Source of the DNA: Candidatus Fermentibacterota bacterium
GTDB lineage: Bacteria; Fermentibacterota; Fermentibacteria; Fermentibacterales; JCC-6
Reading direction: 5' to 3'
Length of the DNA stretch: 64,000 bases
NCBI GenBank assembly: GCA_963845085.1
Contig: CAWJQI010000001.1
Span: 352,001 to 416,000, forward strand
The position numbers were made by a program, and so were the translations under genes. This document shows positions 33,821 to 44,082 of this stretch, piece after piece (position 1 is the first letter of the stretch; each line of letters opens with the position of its first letter). The notes below the pieces were generated by a model, which was not told where the DNA came from, did no database searches, and saw only the letters and a list, made by a program, of their open reading frames with translations.

Positions 33821-35029
33821 CTAGGTCCTTATCGCCCGTGCGAGCTCGGCACCCATTCTCCTGCATTTCGCAAGATCATCAGGTGTGGGGGCGTAACGGA
33901 CCGCAACGGAGTCGGCGGCCCTGACGCACTTCCATCCTTCGAGCACCCTCTCGAGCGCGGGAACGGCCTCGCCGCTCCATCCGTGGCTGCCGAACGCTGC
34001 AGAGGCCCTTCCGTGGAACCTGAGACCCCCGAGGTATTCGATGTGATCGGCAATTACAGGGAAGAGCCCGTTGTTCAGAGTCGGCGAGCCGAGCGCCACT
34101 CCGCCCGCACCGAGCATCTCGGTGGCGACCACGCTTCTGTGAACGTTGCCGGCCTTCAGCACTTTCACCGGAATCCCTTCGCAGGCTGCCCCCTCGGCGA
34201 CCGCCCTTGCCATGATACCGGTGGAATTCCACATCGTGTCGAACAGGATAACCAGGCTGTCCCGGTTCTTCCCGAGAGCCCAGTCCTTCCAGAGAGAGAT
34301 CACCCATCCGGGCCCGGCTGCCGTCCCCTCGGTCCAGATGGGGCCGTGATCGGGCGCGATGATGGACGGGTGTATGCCGAGGCTCTCGACCCTTTCGAGA
34401 AGACCGGTCACCAGCTTCGAGAAAGGGTTGAGTATGTTGGCGTAGTACATGGCCGACTCCCTGCGGAGCAGGCAGGCATCGAGGTCGCATGCGAAAAGCC
34501 GGTCCGTCGCAAGGTGCATCCCGAAGGCGTCCTGGCTGAAGAGGATGTTGCGGTCGGGCATGAAGGTGAACATGCTGTCGGGCCAGTGAAGCATCCTGGT
34601 TTCGAGGAATGAGAACCGGTTGTCTCCGATCTCCAGGGTTCCGCCGTTCTCCACCGCCTCGGGCCGGAGCGGCAGTGAGTGGAAATAGGCCATGAGGTTT
34701 TCGACACCGGCTTTCGACGCCAGCAGACGCTTCGGCCGGAACGATTCAAGAACGGCCGGAAGGGCTCCGGTGTGATCCGGTTCGGAATGGTTGCTTATGA
34801 CAACGTCCACCCTGTCGGTAATGGATGCAATCCTCCCGAGAAGTTCGTCTTTGAAGGGAGCTTTCACCGTGTCGATCAGAATGTTCTGCTCCCCGGTGAC
34901 AAGAAACGCGTTGTAGGTAGACCCGCATGACGTTTCATAGCCGTGGAAATCCCTCACATCCCAGTCGACGGCGCCGACCCAGTGGATTCCGGGTGCTATT
35001 TCCCGGGCGCGGAAGCAGCTCTCAGGCAT
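33821..35029 (-). CDS. fprA: Flavodiiron protein (FprA, A-type flavoprotein)
   Basis: HWVGAVDW, STYNAFL, NHSEPDHTG, LHWPDSM, SQDAFG, PDHG; flavodoxin domain AFGSHGWSGEA. Confidence 0.93.
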   Translation of the reverse strand: MPESCFRAREIAPGIHWVGAVDWDVRDFHGYETSCGSTYNAFLVTGEQNILIDTVKAPFKDELLGRIASITDRVDVVISNHSEPDHTGALPAVLESFRPKRLLASKAGVENLMAYFHSLPLRPEAVENGGTLEIGDNRFSFLETRMLHWPDSMFTFMPDRNILFSQDAFGMHLATDRLFACDLDACLLRRESAMYYANILNPFSKLVTGLLERVESLGIHPSIIAPDHGPIWTEGTAAGPGWVISLWKDWALGKNRDSLVILFDTMWNSTGIMARAVAEGAACEGIPVKVLKAGNVHRSVVATEMLGAGGVALGSPTLNNGLFPVIADHIEYLGGLRFHGRASAAFGSHGWSGEAVPALERVLEGWKCVRAADSVAVRYAPTPDDLAKCRRMGAELARAIRT

Positions 35030-35518
35030 TCATTCCCCCCTGACAAGACCCGCCACACATGGCGATGAGACCTCGGCCACCCACTCCAGGAAACGGCGGT
35101 CATTGCTGTCGAAACCGTCCCGCATGTGGCTGTCGAGGTCGAGTTCTCCAATGAACCTGCAGCCCTGGAAAACGGGAACCACGATTTCGCTTTTTACCTT
35201 CGGGCTGCATGAGAGGTAGTTTTCCTGCGTACCCACATCACCGACGATGAAGGTCTGAAGCGACTCAGCGGCCTGGCCGCAGATCCCCTGGCCGAAGGCG
35301 ATGCTGACGTGCTCGGTGGGCTCACCGCTGAACGGGCCCAGCCTCAGTTTCCGCTCATGGGATGGATCGACCAGGTAGAAGCCGGCCCAGTCGTAACCCG
35401 GTATCGCGGCCAAAATATCGCACACCCTTTGAAGCCTGTCCCGGTCGCTTCCCTCTTCCGAAATGCCGAGGTCTATCTCGGCCATCGTGTTCCGAAGCAG
35501 CGACAGTCTTTCGTTCAT
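35030..35518 (-). CDS. msrC: GAF-domain free methionine-R-sulfoxide reductase-like protein
   Basis: DWAGFY, LGPF, GQGICGQAA, YLSCS, SEIVVP, LDLDS. Confidence 0.8.
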   Translation of the reverse strand: MNERLSLLRNTMAEIDLGISEEGSDRDRLQRVCDILAAIPGYDWAGFYLVDPSHERKLRLGPFSGEPTEHVSIAFGQGICGQAAESLQTFIVGDVGTQENYLSCSPKVKSEIVVPVFQGCRFIGELDLDSHMRDGFDSNDRRFLEWVAEVSSPCVAGLVRGE

Positions 35519-35868
35519 TCCCCGTCTTCCTCCGAGAGCTTTTCCCAAAGGGCGGCAGCCCTTCTCAGATGGGGAACGGTGATGGTTCCGGCCACCACCG
35601 TTCCAACACCCAGGGCTTCCATCACCTCTGCGGTGGGGATTCCCAGTTCATGGCAGCGGTGAATATGCCACGAAATGCAGTCGTCGCAACGAAGCACAAG
35701 CGATGCCACAAGGCCGAGAAGCTCCTTCGTGGCCGCGGGCAGCGCACCGTCACGGTACGCGAGGGCGTCGACCGAATAGACCCTTCTGATCACCTGGTCG
35801 GCGTTTCTCAGGACAGCCTCGTTGAGGGCTTTCCTCTCCTCAAGAAAACTCCGCCCGCCGCCTTCCAT
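35515..35868 (-). CDS. Carboxymuconolactone decarboxylase/AhpD-like protein
   Basis: DGALPAATKELLGLVASLVLRCDDCISWH. Confidence 0.85.
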   Translation of the reverse strand: MEGGGRSFLEERKALNEAVLRNADQVIRRVYSVDALAYRDGALPAATKELLGLVASLVLRCDDCISWHIHRCHELGIPTAEVMEALGVGTVVAGTITVPHLRRAAALWEKLSEEDGE

Positions 35869-35873
35869 GGTCG

Positions 35874-36395
35874 TTACTTCCCGGCCAGGATCGCCGCCTG
35901 GACGTAAACCCTCGCGGCGAGTTCGCGGTCCATCATGAACAGACCGCCGCCGCCGGACTTGTCGACGAGGTTGAGCTTCTGGATGAGTACCTCGGCATTG
36001 GCCTCCTCCTCCACCTGTTCGGCCACGTACCACTGAAGGAAGTTGGCCGATGCGTGGTCTTTCGCGGCCTGTGCCGTCTCGAGAAGATGGCCGATGCTCG
36101 CAGTGATGAAGCGCTCGTGCGCAAGTACCGCCTCGAAGGCCGCCAGGGGCGAAGCCCACACGCCGTCGGGTTTTGCCACGGCATCAAGGCTCACGGTGGC
36201 GCCGCGCGCAAGCATGTGGTTGAAGAGCCCCATCGCATGGTCCCTCTCCTCCTGGGCCTGAACCCTCATCCAGTTCGCAAAGCCCGAGAGCCCGAGGCCC
36301 TCGAACCATGCGGCCATGGAGAGGTAGAGGTATGCACTGAACAGCTCCCTGTTGATCTGCCCGTTCATCTCCCCCGCCACGGTTTCCTTCATCAT
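35874..36395 (-). CDS. ftnA: Non-heme ferritin
   Basis: QINRELFSAYLYLSMAAW, QAQEERDHA, HE..IT, FLQWYVAEQVEEE. Confidence 0.92.
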   Translation of the reverse strand: MMKETVAGEMNGQINRELFSAYLYLSMAAWFEGLGLSGFANWMRVQAQEERDHAMGLFNHMLARGATVSLDAVAKPDGVWASPLAAFEAVLAHERFITASIGHLLETAQAAKDHASANFLQWYVAEQVEEEANAEVLIQKLNLVDKSGGGGLFMMDRELAARVYVQAAILAGK

Positions 36396-36397
36396 GA

Positions 36398-36775
36398 TTA
36401 TCGCCTCCAGAGGCCGTGGACGTTGCAGTATTCCCTGGCTGCCGTCACGTCGGCCAGTCTGATCGGGAAGAAGGCCTCGGGAGCTGCGCCGGGGGCGAGT
36501 TCGGTCCGGTAGACCCTGTTCGCGGTGTGGACCTCGACCCACTCTATGAAATGGGCCTCAACCATCGGATGCGGAACGCTTCCAACCTTGAGAAGGACCC
36601 CGCCTTCTGTCTCCACGAGTACCGGAACATGCTTCTCGGTAGTGCTGTCGGCGGTAAGCTCGGGCAAAAGCTTCATGGGCTGTCCGCAGCAGACCAGCTC
36701 GCCCGCGCCCGGATGAAGCATCTCGACGATGTTGCCGCAGAGTTCGCACCTGTAAACCTGTCTTTTCTGTGTCAT
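36398..36775 (-). CDS. dfx: Desulfoferrodoxin (2Fe superoxide reductase)
   Basis: [10 protein letters not shown]...[16 protein letters not shown]...HFI, CNVHGLW. Confidence 0.95.
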
Positions 36776-36787
36776 TTCTGCCACCTC

Positions 36788-37360
36788 CTACCAGTTTGTC
36801 GGGGCAAGCTCGAAATAGTCCTGGGGATGATTGCACGCGGGGCAGAGCTTCGGCGCATCTTTGCCTGTGTGCACGTATCCGCAGTTTCTGCATCGCCACA
36901 GCGCTTTTTCGGGCCTGCTCCAGACAATGTTCTTCGCAATGTTGTCCGCGAGCTTCCTGTAGCGCTCGCCATGGAACTTCTCGGCCACGGAGATGCTCTC
37001 GAAGACCGCCGCGATCTCTGAGAAGCCTTCCTCCCTCGCGATCCGGGCAAAGTCGGGGTACATCGATCCCCATTCGTGTTCCTCGCCCTCGGCGGCCGCA
37101 GTGAGGTTGGCAAGGGTGCCGCCAATGACGCCCGCCGGGAAGGCTGCCGAAATCATGGCATCCCCGCCCTCGAGGAACTTGAAGAATCTTTTCGCGTGTT
37201 CCTTCTCCTGGTCGGCCGTTTCAAGGAAAACGGCTTCGATCTGCCTGAAGCCCTCCTTGCCGGCGGCGGATGCGAAATACGTGTACCTGTTCCTCGCCTG
37301 GGACTCACCGGCGAAAGCGGTGAGAAGGTTCCTTTCGGTCTTCGTTCCCTTCAGTGCCAT
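36788..37360 (-). CDS. rbr: Rubrerythrin
   Basis: AFAGESQARNRY, EKEHA, C-terminal WRCRNCGY...CPACNHP. Confidence 0.96.
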   Translation of the reverse strand: MALKGTKTERNLLTAFAGESQARNRYTYFASAAGKEGFRQIEAVFLETADQEKEHAKRFFKFLEGGDAMISAAFPAGVIGGTLANLTAAAEGEEHEWGSMYPDFARIAREEGFSEIAAVFESISVAEKFHGERYRKLADNIAKNIVWSRPEKALWRCRNCGYVHTGKDAPKLCPACNHPQDYFELAPTNW

Positions 37361-38958: not shown

Positions 38959-39662
38959 AAGGAACGCTGAGCCCCCCCGACGGACATCATCGCGGAATGG
39001 ATGAATACGGCCGCCACCCCGATCCAGTAGATGGCGTGGGTGGGGCCGGTCCTGTCAACCATCACAAGCCCCTCCAGAAGCGCAAGCATCGTCAACAGGG
39101 CTCCGAGCGATACGAGCATCCCGATCGAAGAGAACCTTCCCGCGCCCCTCAGGGTATCGTTCGAGAGCGGTTCCACTCGGTCTGACTCCACGGTGCTCGC
39201 ACCCGAAACAGTTCCGATGATGACTCCGAGCGTGGCTCCCGTGGCATCCCCCAGGGAGTTCAGAACAGCCCCCCCCGGACCGGGCAGCTCCAGAGAGACC
39301 ATTCCTCTCACCGACTGGGCGTTCTTCATCGCGGCCTCGGCGACCGCCTCCCTGTTCAGGGAGCGCAAAAGTCTCAGCCTGTCGCCCTCGACACCGCTGC
39401 TTCCGATGGTCCCGCTGGCAACGAGCACAACGGCGCCCCAGGCAACGCCGGACAGGGCGAGCAGCAGCCCGAGCCTGCGCGAAATGCTCAGCTCACGGGT
39501 GAAGGACCGCACCGAGAAAAGAAACACCGCGCCGGACAGGATGCAGAGACATCCTGAAACCCTTGTCAGGGTGGACCATGGCGGCAGGATCGCCGAGGGC
39601 AGGGCAAGCAGCCCGGCGAAAACAAGAAGAGCTGTGGTTGCTGGTATCCTGCCCCTGCTCAA
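38955..39662 (-). CDS. Membrane protein; possibly the N-terminal part of the SpoIIE gene
   Basis: Several TM segments. Adding one G to the G7 run (38972-38978) fuses it in frame with the downstream ORF. Confidence 0.55.
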   Translation of the reverse strand: MSRGRIPATTALLVFAGLLALPSAILPPWSTLTRVSGCLCILSGAVFLFSVRSFTRELSISRRLGLLLALSGVAWGAVVLVASGTIGSSGVEGDRLRLLRSLNREAVAEAAMKNAQSVRGMVSLELPGPGGAVLNSLGDATGATLGVIIGTVSGASTVESDRVEPLSNDTLRGAGRFSSIGMLVSLGALLTMLALLEGLVMVDRTGPTHAIYWIGVAAVFIHSAMMSVGGAQRSL

Positions 39663-40954
39663 ACGTTCTCCCTCAGAAAGGTGGAATGTTCTTCAATGCC
39701 TCCCATGCGGGTTTCCCCGGTGAGCATGTTCTTGAGCCCGAGAACTCCCGTGGCCGCCTCGGAAGGCCCGACAACGAGCACCCAGGGGTAATTCTCCCGG
39801 GAGGCCTGCTGGAACTGCTTTGCGACCTTCCGTCCGGATATGTCCACCACGGTGGGGATGCCACAGCTTCTGAACCCTTCGCCCAGTTTCAGGGCGTGGG
39901 CAAGTTCATCCCTGGAGAAGACGGCGATGAACAGACGCGCCGGGGGAGCTTTGTCAAGATCGGGGGGCAGGCATCCGTAGGTTTCCAGAAAAAGTGTGAG
40001 GGCGAGGACTCCAAGCCCGAACCCGACACCCGAAATGGCCCTTCCCTCGAACATCCCCACGAGGTTGTCGTACCTTCCTCCGCCGCACAGGGCCCTTCTG
40101 TTCTCACCGCCGGTATCCGTAAGCTCGAACACAATCCCGGTGTAGTAGTCGAGCCCCCGCACGACGGAGGGGCAGAACTCTGCGGACTGCATGCCCGAAG
40201 CCGCAACGAGCCCGGCGAAATCCCGCACCTCGGCAAGCTCGGGACGGCCTGCGAGAAGATCGGAAAGAAACGGGTCGCCCGGGTCCTTCACTTCGCAGAG
40301 CCGTTTCACACCCTCAGCCGTCGCGGTCGAGCCGAACGCGCCAGTGAGCATGTCGAACCACTCCTCCGGCGCTGTCTTGTCCCTGCGGTCAAGCACGCCG
40401 AAGGCTCCGGCAGCATCCGTGACTCCCAGGGCTGAGAGGGCCGCAGAGGCGAACCTTCTGCTGCTCCACCTGACCCTGTACTTGTCCGACGAGACACCCA
40501 GCCGTTTCATCATGCGGTCGAGCACGAGGAAGATCTCGAGTTCGGCCCCTGGAGCATCGGCTCCGAGGATGTCGAGGTTGAACTGGAGGAACTCCCTTAC
40601 CCTGCCGCGCTGTGGTCTTTCATGGCGGTAGCAGAGGGGCATCGACATCCACCGTACCGGCAGGTGCATCTCACCGCGAGCCGCCACCATCCTTGCCAGG
40701 GTGGGAGTCAGCTCGGGTCTCATGACGACCTTGCGCCCCCCCCTGTCGGTGAACCAGTAGCTCTGCTTTTCTACAAGCTCTCCGCCGCTTTTCGCCTCGA
40801 ACAGCGAGAACGGTTCGAGAACCGGGCCGTCGTATTCCTGAAAACCCGACATCGCCCCCGCTTCGAGCAGCACTCGGCAGACGTGCCGCTCAACAAGGAG
40901 CTCCTCGGGATACCTTTGGCGCATTCCCGTGAGTGGGTTGGTGGATGGGGTCAA
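39659..40954 (-). CDS. hisS: Histidine-tRNA ligase
   Basis: MRPELTPTLARM, YRHERPQRGRVREFLQ, VRGLDYYTGIVFE, GGGRYDNL, GFGLG; TTG start. Confidence 0.95.
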   Translation of the reverse strand: MTPSTNPLTGMRQRYPEELLVERHVCRVLLEAGAMSGFQEYDGPVLEPFSLFEAKSGGELVEKQSYWFTDRGGRKVVMRPELTPTLARMVAARGEMHLPVRWMSMPLCYRHERPQRGRVREFLQFNLDILGADAPGAELEIFLVLDRMMKRLGVSSDKYRVRWSSRRFASAALSALGVTDAAGAFGVLDRRDKTAPEEWFDMLTGAFGSTATAEGVKRLCEVKDPGDPFLSDLLAGRPELAEVRDFAGLVAASGMQSAEFCPSVVRGLDYYTGIVFELTDTGGENRRALCGGGRYDNLVGMFEGRAISGVGFGLGVLALTLFLETYGCLPPDLDKAPPARLFIAVFSRDELAHALKLGEGFRSCGIPTVVDISGRKVAKQFQQASRENYPWVLVVGPSEAATGVLGLKNMLTGETRMGGIEEHSTFLRENV

Positions 40955-40955
40955 C

Positions 40956-42245
40956 TCATTCCCTTCCTTCCCCGCGGGCAAGCGGACAACCGCCCCCGCA
41001 GACCGTTAACTCGATGCACTCCCTGCACATGGACGGAAGGAACTCCCTGTCCCTGATCCGTACAAAAAGCCTGTCGTTCCATATCTTTTCCCATGGGTCC
41101 CTGAGGAGGTTTCCCGCCCCCTGGAACCAGCTCTGGCACGGGAGCACCGTACCGTCGGGCTCCACGCAGATGTTCATGGTTGCGGCGGTGCACCTTCTGG
41201 CGCCGAGGCCAAGCTGTTCCGGATCGAGCCGGCAGTACCGCGTGGGCGAGTACCAGAGCATTCTCGTCCCAAGGGCCTCACACGCGGCCTTCAGGTCTAT
41301 GAGAAGAGCCTCGAGCCTGACGTCCGGCAGGCTTTTCTCCCCCTGGGACGTGTGGCCGCTGCAGATGACCGTGTTGAATGCCGCGGCGGCGACCCCGAGG
41401 CCCGAAACGAATGCCGGTACGCCCAGGACGGACGCTTCGTTGTCGAGACACAGGGTGGTGTTCGTCACGGTGTGAAAACCGGCGGCGACGGAGTTCCGAA
41501 TTCCCGCAACCGTATTCTCCCACGCGTCCGCCCCGACCATCGCATTGTGCACTGCCGGATCGTTCGATTCGAGAGTGATCTGCACGTAGTCAAGCCCTGC
41601 GGCTCGAAGCTTTTCCACGCGGGCGGGATCGGAGAGGCCGACCCCGTTGGTGAGCAGCCCGGTGACAAGTCCGAGGCTCTCCGCATGCCTTACAAGCTCC
41701 TCGAGGTCGGCCCTGAGGATGGACTCGCCCCCGGTGAAGACCACCTGGGGAACACCGGCATCGGCAAGGCTGTTGATGATGCCCTTCCACGAGGCCGCAT
41801 CAATTTCGGAAACCTGCCTGTCGCCCTTGTAGCAGTGGCCGCACGCCACGTTGCAGCGGTACGTGAGGGCGAGGTCGGCCCTGAAGGGGGCAGACGGGAG
41901 GGTGTCGGGCGTCTCCTCCACTTCGAGGACCACCCGTTCGCCCCTGATCACGGCCTCGAGATCGCTGCTGAAGGCGGTGAAATCAGCCAATGCTTTCTTC
42001 CTCGAAAGGCCGTACCGTCTGGCCAGCCGTTTCGAGGCCTCCTTCGCATCCAGTCCCGACAGCATCAACCAGGCGCAGTCCGCGCCTGTGGCATTCAGGC
42101 GGATGAGTGACGCCGCATTCACAACAAGCACTCCGCTTCCGTCCGGTTCAACCCGGAGGTGCATTCTGGAATCGCCCCTGCGGTAATGGTGCAGCCCGGC
42201 CGGGGCAAGCCTGCCTTTTTCAACGCCGCCGAATATCCCCATCAT
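40956..42245 (-). CDS. Radical SAM/SPASM protein with N-terminal PqqD/RRE-like domain
   Basis: LTYRCNVACGHC, FTGGE, TNG; SPASM CTAA...DGTVLPC...GNL...CRECxxxxxCGGGC; N-terminus GVLVVNA..IRLNATG..W...LARRYG.....ADF. Confidence 0.9.
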   Translation of the reverse strand: MMGIFGGVEKGRLAPAGLHHYRRGDSRMHLRVEPDGSGVLVVNAASLIRLNATGADCAWLMLSGLDAKEASKRLARRYGLSRKKALADFTAFSSDLEAVIRGERVVLEVEETPDTLPSAPFRADLALTYRCNVACGHCYKGDRQVSEIDAASWKGIINSLADAGVPQVVFTGGESILRADLEELVRHAESLGLVTGLLTNGVGLSDPARVEKLRAAGLDYVQITLESNDPAVHNAMVGADAWENTVAGIRNSVAAGFHTVTNTTLCLDNEASVLGVPAFVSGLGVAAAAFNTVICSGHTSQGEKSLPDVRLEALLIDLKAACEALGTRMLWYSPTRYCRLDPEQLGLGARRCTAATMNICVEPDGTVLPCQSWFQGAGNLLRDPWEKIWNDRLFVRIRDREFLPSMCRECIELTVCGGGCPLARGEGRE

Positions 42246-43735
42246 CTACCTCCTCCGGCGCACGCGCAGGCACAGCCGGCACAGGCGCAGGCGCATGCAC
42301 ACCCGCCCCCGGAATGGGACCTGCCGCTCGAGACGGGCAGAGGGTTCACAACGCCCGCGACGCTCTGAGTAAGGCCGCGCACCGAGCTCGCCGCCGCGGA
42401 TTCTATCCTCGAGACAAGGTTTCCGCACGCAGCGGCAACATTGATCGAACTGCCGGTGCCGGCTGACGACACGGGCCATGCCGAGGAGGGGATATAGACC
42501 GGCGATGGAAGCCTCGAGAGTCTTGCCTGCGGCTTTTCCTCGGAAGCAAGGAGCCACTGGAACCTGTCCACGAACACCTCGGCCGCAGTGGTGGCGTCGG
42601 GCGCCTCCTCGAGCTGTTTCCATGCGTTCTTCATCACGCCTGTGTAGTACGCAAGCGTTGTCTTGAGGTTGAAATCCTCCATGTCCTTCGCGAGCTCGCC
42701 TATCATATCCTGGAAGAAGGTTCCGAGGTTCTTCTGCGTGAGCCCCTCCGCGCCTGCGACAAGCTCGAGAAGCTTCTTCTCGTACTCCCGCAACCCCCCC
42801 GGGACAACTCCCATTGGGGTGATCCTGGAGCCGGGTCCCTCACCCGTAACGGTCACGGCGCCCTTGCGGATAAGGCTCCAGACGATGAGCATCAGCACCC
42901 TGTCCAGGGGCTTTTCCATGAGCAGGGCGGCCATGGGGACCGTGAGCCCCCTTCTCACACCCTGCCCCCCCACCCGGATTTTGGGTGGCAGGTACTGCCT
43001 CGATCGCCGCCGGGAACTCCTGATCCCGAAGAAAAGCGGCAGGAAAACGAAGAGAAGCAGGATCAAAAAGACAGATATCGGAGCGCAGCAATCCGTGTTG
43101 AAGAACGTCCCCCCCGACGGCCTCTCAAGGAGGGAACCGGCGACAAGTCCGGCCGGGAACCCTATACCGACCTCGAAGGCCCGGTCAAGCCTGACCGACC
43201 TTTCCCATCGGTAGACGACCCTTCCCTTGTCCACCCATGCACTGTCGAACGGCGCCTCGTGATACCGCACGCTGTCGGGATTGCTGCCCTCTGGAAACAC
43301 CAGTTCGAGGACAAGGTCCGTGTCACCTGTAAGAAGTGATCCGTCGAACCAGGTCGGAGAGAAGTGGAATGATGCCCAGCCCAACTGGTCGTCGTCTTTG
43401 TAGATCCCCCCCCTGCAGATCCCCCGAAACTCGAGAACGCCGGAACCGCCGGGCGGGATGGCCGGGCTGATGGGTATCTCCACCCCGTTGTCGATGTACG
43501 AGGAAATGGATACGGTACAAGGGTTTCCGTTCAGGTCAGCCCACATGTCAACCGCGCTCCAGTCCTGGGTGGGCAGGCCGATGTCGACGACGTCGATCGG
43601 GTCGGCCCCGGGATTGCAGCTGAACCCGATCCGGTAGAACAGGGTGATGGTCTGGTCCTGATTGACCGCGGCCCTGCAGTACATCTCGGGTACGGAAAAG
43701 CTGTAGGAGGCCAGCAGCGCAAGCAGCACTACCAT
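42242..43735 (-). CDS. Signal-peptide/single-TM membrane protein (DUF2207-like layout) with C-terminal (Cys-Ala)n tail
   Basis: Signal peptide, beta-rich domain, TM followed by RSSRRRSR, ends SHSGGGCACACACAGCACACAGGGR. Confidence 0.85.
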   Translation of the reverse strand: MVVLLALLASYSFSVPEMYCRAAVNQDQTITLFYRIGFSCNPGADPIDVVDIGLPTQDWSAVDMWADLNGNPCTVSISSYIDNGVEIPISPAIPPGGSGVLEFRGICRGGIYKDDDQLGWASFHFSPTWFDGSLLTGDTDLVLELVFPEGSNPDSVRYHEAPFDSAWVDKGRVVYRWERSVRLDRAFEVGIGFPAGLVAGSLLERPSGGTFFNTDCCAPISVFLILLLFVFLPLFFGIRSSRRRSRQYLPPKIRVGGQGVRRGLTVPMAALLMEKPLDRVLMLIVWSLIRKGAVTVTGEGPGSRITPMGVVPGGLREYEKKLLELVAGAEGLTQKNLGTFFQDMIGELAKDMEDFNLKTTLAYYTGVMKNAWKQLEEAPDATTAAEVFVDRFQWLLASEEKPQARLSRLPSPVYIPSSAWPVSSAGTGSSINVAAACGNLVSRIESAAASSVRGLTQSVAGVVNPLPVSSGRSHSGGGCACACACAGCACACAGGGR

Positions 43736-44082
43736 TTGGGAGCCTCCTCGAGCTGATAGGTGCTTCCGCAGAACGGGCAGACCACCATCGCGGTGCCCCC
43801 GATCTCCCTGAGGGCTTCAGCGGAGAGCGTTCCCCCGCAGGAGCGACATTTCAGGCTCTCCATCGAAACATCACCGGAGAGGTCGAGCTCCCGCCGCTCG
43901 ACAATCCGGTGGACCTGTTTCCTGAACCCCAGGAACAAAAGAACAGCGCCTGCCGCAAGCATGACAACACCGTTTATGATTGTTCCGGTGGCGTGGTTGT
44001 ACGACCCGCCAATGAGAAAAAGGATCCCGAGGCCGATCAGGCAAAGCCCTGCCAGCACGATGACAACCTTTATTATCTTCAT
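43729..44082 (-). CDS. Two-TM membrane protein with C-terminal zinc ribbon
   Basis: Two hydrophobic helices, then CRSCGG...CPFCGSTY. Confidence 0.8.
   Translation of the reverse strand: MKIIKVVIVLAGLCLIGLGILFLIGGSYNHATGTIINGVVMLAAGAVLLFLGFRKQVHRIVERRELDLSGDVSMESLKCRSCGGTLSAEALREIGGTAMVVCPFCGSTYQLEEAPKW

Follow-up and report, generated by a model that had tools for sequence, protein, structure and literature searches.

A 64,000-nucleotide stretch of the genome of a Candidatus Fermentibacterota bacterium (GenBank assembly GCA_963845085.1, contig CAWJQI010000001.1, positions 352,001 to 416,000 of the forward strand; hereafter the window, with its first letter as position 1) encodes a radical S-adenosylmethionine (SAM) enzyme next to a membrane protein that ends in a cysteine-alanine repeat. 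The two belong to a system that is real, widespread and tightly coupled, membrane protein and enzyme being inherited together as well as gained and lost jointly in bacteria and archaea. The repetitive tail is very probably the substrate of the enzyme, and we put at roughly 60% the probability that the enzyme, docked on the membrane protein, puts thioethers on its attached tail.

The cassette and the conservation of its tail

The cassette consists of three open reading frames (ORFs) on the minus strand, which overlap by 7 and 4 nucleotides. The first (43729..44082, minus strand) encodes a zinc-ribbon protein of 117 amino acids with two hydrophobic, presumably transmembrane (TM), segments, both CxxC motifs and a C-terminal ExPKW motif, which reads EAPKW in the window. 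The second (42242..43735, minus strand) encodes the likely substrate, a single-pass membrane protein of 497 amino acids that is assigned a DUF2207 architecture from the ORF, its AlphaFold2 (AF2) model and fold comparison; one clear TM segment is followed by RSSRRRSR, and the protein terminates in GGGCACACACAGCACACAGGGR, with seven cysteines in the tail. The third (40956..42245, minus strand) encodes a 429-residue enzyme in which the ORF, Pfam, profile and fold matches identify a radical SAM and a SPASM domain behind a RiPP (peptide made on the ribosome and modified after translation) recognition element (RRE). All of this agrees with the initial annotation of the locus, which had described the three genes with overlapping stop and start codons, the two TM segments with CxxC...CxxC, the length, TM segment and seven cysteines of the second protein, and the PqqD/RRE-like N-terminus of the third. 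Its assignment of a signal peptide to the 497-residue protein stands only in part, as a candidate segment of about 10 amino acids is present but unusually short.

The putative core of the system is the (Cys-Ala)n tail CACACACAGCACACAGGGR (residues 479-497; 42245..42301, minus strand), which is marked out by conservation and is disordered in the AF2 model. A homologue search with 8000 candidates scored returned 4397 matches at 90% clustering, and in the best 120 of these, the query included, the tail C(AC)nAGCACACAGGGR closes every sequence (120/120) at overall identities of 33-82%. At 50% clustering it is kept in 127 of the 150 best representatives; the other 23 were rejected as true tail-less variants, as none of them extends past profile position 486 of 535 and all seem to be truncated or frameshifted. 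Because the tail codons vary synonymously (148 matches, TGC and TGT about 1:1, no TGA), the tail is conserved as protein, and the same free codon variation and the complete lack of TGA rule out its origin as a DNA repeat or from selenocysteine.

Tails fall into four types: type 1 ends in GGGR, type 2 (Bacillota) continues behind GGGR with AGC and more, type 3 reads CACACASGGAG/H and type 4 consists of (ACHS)n repeats. The number and spacing of the cysteines vary, most tails holding 5 to 10 of them, and the residue behind a cysteine may be Ala, Val or His. The preceding residue is Ala, Gly or Ser at 1534 of 1539 type-1 positions and Ala at 40 of 40 type-4 positions; the unit that is constant across tail types is small residue-Cys, not Cys-Ala.

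At intact loci the cysteine core is borne by membrane proteins of 316-676 amino acids. No short precursor recurs at the loci, where the clustering covered ORFs of 80 amino acids or more. The short tail ORFs L001, L027, L070 and L078 proved to be broken copies of the long gene and not stand-alone precursors; L023, a type-2 tail on a 131-residue ORF close to a contig end, is possibly a misassembly. The sole match from a viral collection (L151 from IMG/VR, near a contig end) has a short three-cysteine tail and no enzyme within 5.3 kb, and may be host DNA.

Co-occurrence of tail and enzyme

A DNA pattern built on the tail, which takes no account of the remainder of the protein, retrieved at least 118 stretches from GTDB, 79 of which were listed with their flanks. 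At these 79 loci the enzyme is found within the locus for 44 of 50 type-1 and 28 of 29 type-2 tails. Two of the seven enzyme-less loci lie on short contigs, four, which are the split type-1 cases, all have an orthologue elsewhere in the genome (4/4, E < 1e-145), and the last is L023.

Across 70 genomes from the host phylum, the tail (47 genomes), the enzyme (48), the zinc-ribbon gene (46) and a methyltransferase gene (46) all fall inside the same 48 genomes, tail and enzyme occurring together in all 47 and 22 of the 70 having none of the four genes. The zinc-ribbon gene is thus present in 46 of 48 enzyme-positive and in 0 of 22 enzyme-negative genomes, and in G053, which has the enzyme without the tail, the contigs are broken on both sides of the expected tail gene. 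Among 251 genomes of Chloroflexota, with up to 6 candidates scored per genome, the enzyme was found in 23, each time with a tail nearby (23/23); a 24th pattern match was discarded, since it reads CACACACGG and not the tail motif.

The 200 scored genomes of Clostridia yielded four type-2 pairs and four related enzymes, and all four of the latter adjoin a homologous membrane protein (hhalign probability 99.0) whose end, (ACHS)n-ACVSGGAR/K, defines type 4. These type-4 cassettes (L276-L279) also include a conserved downstream gene for 331-360 amino acids, for which neither a Pfam nor an NCBIfam match was obtained in the one copy scanned. Type 3 had to be sought with a looser pattern that has many chance matches, and only the 30 of 80 flanked metagenome loci with a match to the membrane-protein profile were counted; the type-3 loci of at least 8 kb (n = 15) contain the enzyme in 14 cases, the zinc ribbon in 14 and the methyltransferase in none.

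Across the host phylum, the Chloroflexota, the Clostridia and the listed loci, tail-bearing homologues are therefore nearly always linked to a radical SAM/SPASM gene, as had been anticipated, and homologues span Fermentibacterota, Chloroflexota, Bacillota, Planctomycetota, Myxococcota, Hydrogenedentota, Thermoplasmatota and Heimdallarchaeota. In a FastTree phylogeny, in which the monophyly of type 3 is unsupported, enzyme clades track tail type with 5 changes for 6 groups, compared to a mean of 56 after shuffling. The tree, like the close homologues that bear a name, would place the host of the window in Fermentibacterota. Two genomes (that of L026 and that of L049 and L152) hold two tail proteins with one enzyme found in each, and a single enzyme may therefore serve several substrates.

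Predicted docking at an internal recognition motif

Folding the enzyme against the cytoplasmic part of the membrane protein, much as suggested initially for its first 100 or so residues, resulted in a predicted complex: with residues 240-497 as partner the scores were 0.75, 0.76 and 0.76, as against 0.00 for the best of three controls. Of 157 solved complexes, 116 attain the mark used for this score, as do 2 of 215 mismatched pairs; the mark is roughly applicable here, the alignments being self-made. The runs share at least 41% of their contacts, with a pLDDT (predicted local distance difference test) of the partner of at least 76.

The predicted interface contains RRE residues 48-57, 78-80 and 88-99 as well as residues 247-256 of the membrane protein, and its tightest pairs include 51-252 and 50-253. 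It thus places the RRE, by residues 48-57 and 88-99, on YLPPKI (residues 248-253; 42977..42994, minus strand), a YxxPx[LVIFA]-type motif that conservation and the predicted complex single out as a predicted internal leader. Tyr248 is present in 141 of 141 homologues and YxxPx[LVIFAM] in 133 of 141, and the type-4 proteins have WxxPx[LI] at the same place (4/4). According to the accessible parts of PMC13381572 and PMC12710340, the recognition motif of lasso/LPP systems is [Y/W]xxPx[L/V/I/F/A], so that motif, Tyr/Trp alternation and predicted placement at RRE beta3/alpha3 are all shared; however, here the motif is found at residue 248 of a membrane protein, with some 230 residues separating it from a core that lies beyond a folded domain.

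A second predicted surface brings enzyme residues 309-317, 336-349 and 405-415 against this domain, a cytoplasmic GOLPH3/Vps74-like helical domain (approximately residues 262-447; 42395..42952, minus strand) recognised by fold comparison and in the predicted complex, with weak TIGR04222 and DUF2207_C matches in homologues. The type-2 system has neither the helical domain nor the enzyme cysteines C338, C407, C410 and C416, and is therefore consistent with the second surface of the model. Taken together, the enzyme is predicted to dock directly on the cytoplasmic face of the protein.

Domains and relatives of the enzyme

In Pfam, the enzyme scores above the cut-offs of Radical_SAM (77.1 bits), SPASM (35.8) and PqqD (24.7, cut-off 23.4). 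Its RRE domain (approximately residues 17-100; 41946..42197, minus strand) has four strands and three helices in an AF2 model of pLDDT 90.5 and aligns with the N-termini of SkfB (from model residue 27) and SuiB (from 21), which together with the PqqD score upholds the proposed RRE fold. By alignment, the CxxxCxxC motif (C131, C135, C138; 41832..41855, minus strand) is invariant in 68 of 68 enzymes, as are C352, C370 and C420 of the SPASM region (40986..41234, minus strand). While C352, C370, C407, C410, C416 and C420 are present in 42 of 42 type-1 enzymes, C338, C407, C410 and C416 are confined to the GGGR-terminal type and found in 0 of 26 type-2 enzymes. The three invariant auxiliary cysteines would fit a predicted three-ligand AuxI with an open iron, for which the auxiliary cluster of CteB reportedly offers a comparison; an AuxI with an open iron has also been proposed for CrpC in the available text of PMC13692751.

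The top solved match is SkfB, both by profile (E 4e-35) and by fold (Z 28.9, root-mean-square deviation (rmsd) 4.2, 348 residues aligned). Located after the scheme given in PMC10288494, the active-site-facing residues Y139, T171, T224, Q371 and S372 do not vary among the 68 enzymes (68/68), with an uncertain mapping of the third position. They resemble the equivalent residues, by alignment, of SkfB (Y, T, S, Q, L) and StsB (Y, T, S, K, L), but differ from the F/F/S/H of CteB, for which the same source gives F, F, S, H and Q.

Partner genes

The zinc-ribbon protein ends in E-x-PKW at 39 of 40 loci, falls only in unnamed clusters of the Atlas, and its ribbon lies inside the membrane protein itself in 11 of 24 type-2 proteins; a function as electron carrier was considered and found to be unsupported. 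The class I methyltransferase is found in 32 of 50 type-1 loci and in 0 of 29 type-2 loci, travels with the enzyme upon operon split, and is seen only alongside tails that end in a free Arg. In this genus it has moved away, in the window genome to G000:C1:323652-324383, outside the window and about 69 kb distant, yet it is retained. Its top match in the PDB is LahSB (E 1e-23), described in the available part of PMC11285071 as a peptide C-terminal carboxyl methyltransferase. No full-length match was obtained in 10 type-2 genomes, a result that is suggestive only, since diverged orthologues score like generic matches. Following the relocated gene, at G000:C1 ~322334-323584 (minus strand), there is a frame of about 417 codons with an N-terminal CxxC...CxxC ribbon and a TM segment.

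Of the 50 type-1 loci, 27 contain an inactive paralogue of the enzyme that has kept the RRE but not CxxxCxxC; it was not found in the window genome. Fusions that put it in front of the membrane protein show three different junctions (P0235, P0267, P0268/L013); L035 was rejected as a further fusion, its N-terminal part being an overlapping frame. In 11 loci of Chloroflexota (L008, L019, L029, L036 and seven more) a stand-alone PAS-like gene of about 115 amino acids lies between enzyme and inactive copy.

Proposed mechanism and alternative explanations

We propose that the RRE of the enzyme would dock at YxxPxI just past the membrane, with the SPASM side on the GOLPH3-like domain, and that the enzyme would crosslink tail cysteine sulfurs to alpha-carbons within the flexible (Ala-Cys)n tail, which would then stay attached to the membrane protein. 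By analogy, we infer that the linkage would be a sactionine, in the simplest case from Cys(i) to the small residue i-1, giving repeated thiomorpholinone rings, or else in the form of nested hairpin links. The small residue-Cys unit suggests a local link like the enteropeptin thiomorpholine, although heterocyclisation would fit it too. The methyltransferase would probably act at the free C-terminal Arg, preferably forming a carboxyl ester, and probable subunits of the same membrane complex are the zinc-ribbon protein and, where a lineage has it, the inactive enzyme copy. As for physiology, a rigid, protease-resistant cytoplasmic handle or a metal site on an envelope protein is a guess, and the sensor or redox-switch role put forward initially is not supported. 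Rather doubtful as a whole is the most elaborate version, a cross-domain membrane-tethered system with a juxtamembrane YxxP leader, an Ala-Cys thiomorpholinone poly-heterocycle that stays attached, an Arg capped by the methyltransferase, a pseudo-enzyme as reader or brake, and a signalling or metal-binding output of an extracellular domain.

A number of observations weigh against thioether formation on a docked substrate, or at least against its generality. Tail residues 479-497 lie outside the confident interface, and therefore it is the docking that is predicted and not the processing of the tail; likeness to solved RRE-leader complexes may moreover contribute to the complex score. As type-2 proteins have neither a YxxP motif nor the helical domain, recognition must differ there. 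The residue before the cysteine is Val at 36 positions of type 3, and no enzyme was found in the genome of L023. Concerning the chemistry, the non-thioether enzymes SuiB, anSME and PqqE are near fold neighbours (Z 24.7-26.7), and among the 25 best NCBIfam families no curated cut-off is passed, with scores of 71.9 for SkfB (cut-off 300) and 82.5 for StsB (cut-off 625). The agreement of enzyme clades with tail types carries the caveat that kinship alone gives such clustering, and the counts given above are not independent events, because the genomes are related. With respect to the methyltransferase, the margin by which LahSB leads is thin (next match 2.5e-21), and since even the orthologue in the window genome reaches no better than 5e-13 with the profile, the absence from type 2 is not firm.

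It is against this background that other explanations have to be weighed. The tail might be modified in a different way, by oxidation of cysteines to thio-oxazole or thioaldehyde or by alternating epimerisation, with the methyltransferase capping an intermediate or a sulfur; we regard this as unlikely, though as the most serious competitor. SbtM, by the products named for it, and anSME are precedents for cysteine oxidation and PoyD for alternating epimerisation. A small residue before every cysteine also suits backbone heterocyclisation, the alternating pattern an L/D array, the close fold neighbours include the non-thioether enzymes named above, and the SbtM model is matched by the enzyme, though far under its cut-off; in addition, a RiPP S-methyltransferase acting on cysteine exists in the form of PtyS, as stated in the available part of PMC11285071. 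However, SkfB is the best match by sequence as well as by fold, the active-site-facing residues resemble those of SkfB and StsB, and the methyltransferase is found in 0 of 29 type-2 and 0 of 15 type-3 loci, which places it outside the core chemistry.

Clearly less probable is an unmodified tail that serves as a multi-thiol ligand for a metal or an Fe-S cluster, the membrane protein anchoring or feeding an enzyme that acts at the membrane on some other substrate, for instance a lipid or small molecule. The large predicted interface with a folded domain and the permanent fusions of the inactive copy do resemble a stable complex, seven thiols come with a zinc-ribbon partner, and the tail is unplaced in the complex model. 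Yet an RRE on a YxxP motif is how substrates are delivered to RiPP enzymes, as far as the consulted sources describe it, enzyme clades follow tail type, with position 371 changing from Gln to Ser together with the (ACHS)n tail of type 4, and the number and spacing of the cysteines vary while Ala/Gly identity is tighter than a metal site requires. More improbable still is an ordinary RiPP in which the membrane protein acts as leader and the modified tail is cleaved at the Gly/Ser linker to release a free peptide. Gly-Gly often precedes the first cysteine, and in the dataset based on RODEO in PMC10288494 three fragments of the tail were rated as precursor peptides, so far as its supplement goes; but the linker is variable (GGG, GSS, GHS), no peptidase, exporter or transporter family recurs among the neighbours of the 79 loci (again for ORFs of at least 80 amino acids), the ectodomain is conserved across all four tail types, and the type-2 tail is internal. 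Thioether formation on the attached tail therefore remains the preferred explanation.

Anatomy of the membrane protein and surroundings of the cassette

In the AF2 model of the membrane protein (pLDDT 90), a beta-sandwich is followed by a long TM helix, the helical domain and, at 477-497, a disordered end. The extracytoplasmic beta-sandwich (approximately residues 11-200; 43136..43705, minus strand) resembles ribophorin I and the N-terminal domain of aminopeptidase N by fold comparison, with 6s7o_E as best match (Z 14.2, rmsd 3.4, 178 residues aligned). For the TM helix (approximately residues 214-242; 43010..43096, minus strand), hydropathy peaks at 210-242 and AF2 gives a helix at 214-245, before the Arg-rich cytoplasmic flank RSSRRRSR. 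The helical domain matches GOLPH3 (3kn1_A) with a middling Z of 7.9 (rmsd 4.0, 156 aligned). Since there is one TM segment, the positive-inside rule would place the tail in the cytoplasm.

No Pfam family matches the protein at cut-off, nor does any NCBIfam family; PF09972 and PF20990 do not match it, and of 85 homologues they give sub-threshold matches in 1 and 4, respectively. The folds, these sub-threshold matches and its Atlas neighbours, which carry DUF2207, are taken to indicate a DUF2207 architecture. It shares with that family the ectodomain, TM segment, GOLPH3-like domain and Gly-rich end, but differs in its sub-cut-off score, mostly one TM segment, the cysteine tail and the linkage to the enzyme. 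P0127, P0129, P0152 and P0266 combine a duplicated or extended ectodomain with a constant cytoplasmic part, P0266 carrying PF06439/PF13385 domains.

Downstream, hisS (39659-40981, minus strand) overlaps the 3' end of the enzyme gene by 26 nucleotides as called. It is no conserved cassette member among the recurring neighbours of the 79 loci, and may be co-transcribed with the enzyme in the present genome only. The Gly codons of GGGR (GGA GGA GGT; 42248-42256, minus strand) double as a Shine-Dalgarno-like sequence, whose spacing favours the second ATG as start of the enzyme; the idea that GGGR is kept as a ribosome-binding site was rejected, as it is retained in type 2, where the gene succession differs. 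A cluster at 33821-37360 (minus strand), which we take to encode a flavodiiron protein, a GAF protein, ferritin, desulfoferrodoxin and rubrerythrin, is not among the recurring neighbours of the cassette. A scan for promoters and terminators remained at chance level.

Comparison with known systems

The initial annotation had called the system undescribed, which stands in so far as no description was found in a mainly open full-text literature, but has to be qualified by conceptual precedents, namely the protein thioethers of CrpC/CrpA (2026) and the TIGR04222 proteins with MNIO enzymes. Three fragments with the tail are also listed as 'Other Uncharacterized' in precursor group 40 in the 2023 supplement of PMC10288494. 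If the mechanism proposed here is true, the modification would be an undescribed one and would fall on an entire membrane protein instead of a small peptide, RiPP-type radical chemistry would reach integral membrane proteins via an internal leader overlooked by precursor-mining tools, and a large family of 4397 homologues that lacks annotation would gain a handle linked to function. The four natural tail variants with their matched enzymes permit specificity swaps, and a soluble fragment (residues 240-497) and one enzyme suffice for testing.

From its sequence, the system is predicted to work like an RRE-dependent thioether maturase pathway. With the sactisynthases SkfB and StsB and the ranthisynthase CteB the enzyme shares domain order and fold; however, the substrates of these three are short, free precursors, which undergo cleavage and, usually, export. 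For each Ala-Cys unit as proposed, a ring precedent is provided by enteropeptin, in which a six-membered thiomorpholine sactionine is formed from cysteine (PMC12395415, as far as available); there it is one ring in a small free peptide, whereas a repeated array is envisaged here.

TIGR04222 membrane proteins have Ser/Gly-rich, cysteine-bearing C-termini and are proposed MNIO substrates (PMC12452194). The likeness lies in the cysteine-bearing tails of membrane proteins, and 14 of 85 homologues match the family weakly (best E 4e-7). Against its cut-off of 43, the window protein is unmatched at E up to 1, and no MNIO enzyme is among the recurring neighbour families of the cassette. Moreover, in the portion of that paper available, the enzyme class is another one, the proteins are multi-pass with variable tails predicted to be periplasmic, and a third of the genomes have no MNIO.

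The closest parallel is found in Methanococcus voltae, where, according to the available text of PMC13692751, the RRE-SPASM enzyme CrpC puts thioethers on the 28.8 kDa protein CrpA and contacts both leader and domain. The Cys-Ala tail was not found in those supplements of the paper that were searched, and the window enzyme is neither among the three matches of its genome to the CrpC family TIGR04463, all below the cut-off of 525, nor is TIGR04463 among its 25 best families. Two other radical SAM genes of this genome (G000:C5:238647-239555 and C5:860346-861488) resemble TIGR04463 below the cut-off and are possible maturases of cysteine-rich proteins. Both systems combine an RRE-radical SAM-SPASM enzyme, with a three-cysteine AuxI that is predicted in the present case, and an adjacent protein-sized cysteine-repeat substrate, which is recognised, here by prediction, through RRE-leader as well as domain-domain contacts. 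However, CrpA has C-X-X-Q/D repeats and an N-terminal leader, as described in that text, whereas here an integral membrane protein is the presumed substrate, its motif being internal and juxtamembrane and its Cys-Ala core 19 residues long, and the partners are a methyltransferase, a zinc ribbon and a pseudo-enzyme. The system therefore lies outside the classical sactipeptide pathways, as it has no short precursor, and outside the CrpC family and TIGR04222.

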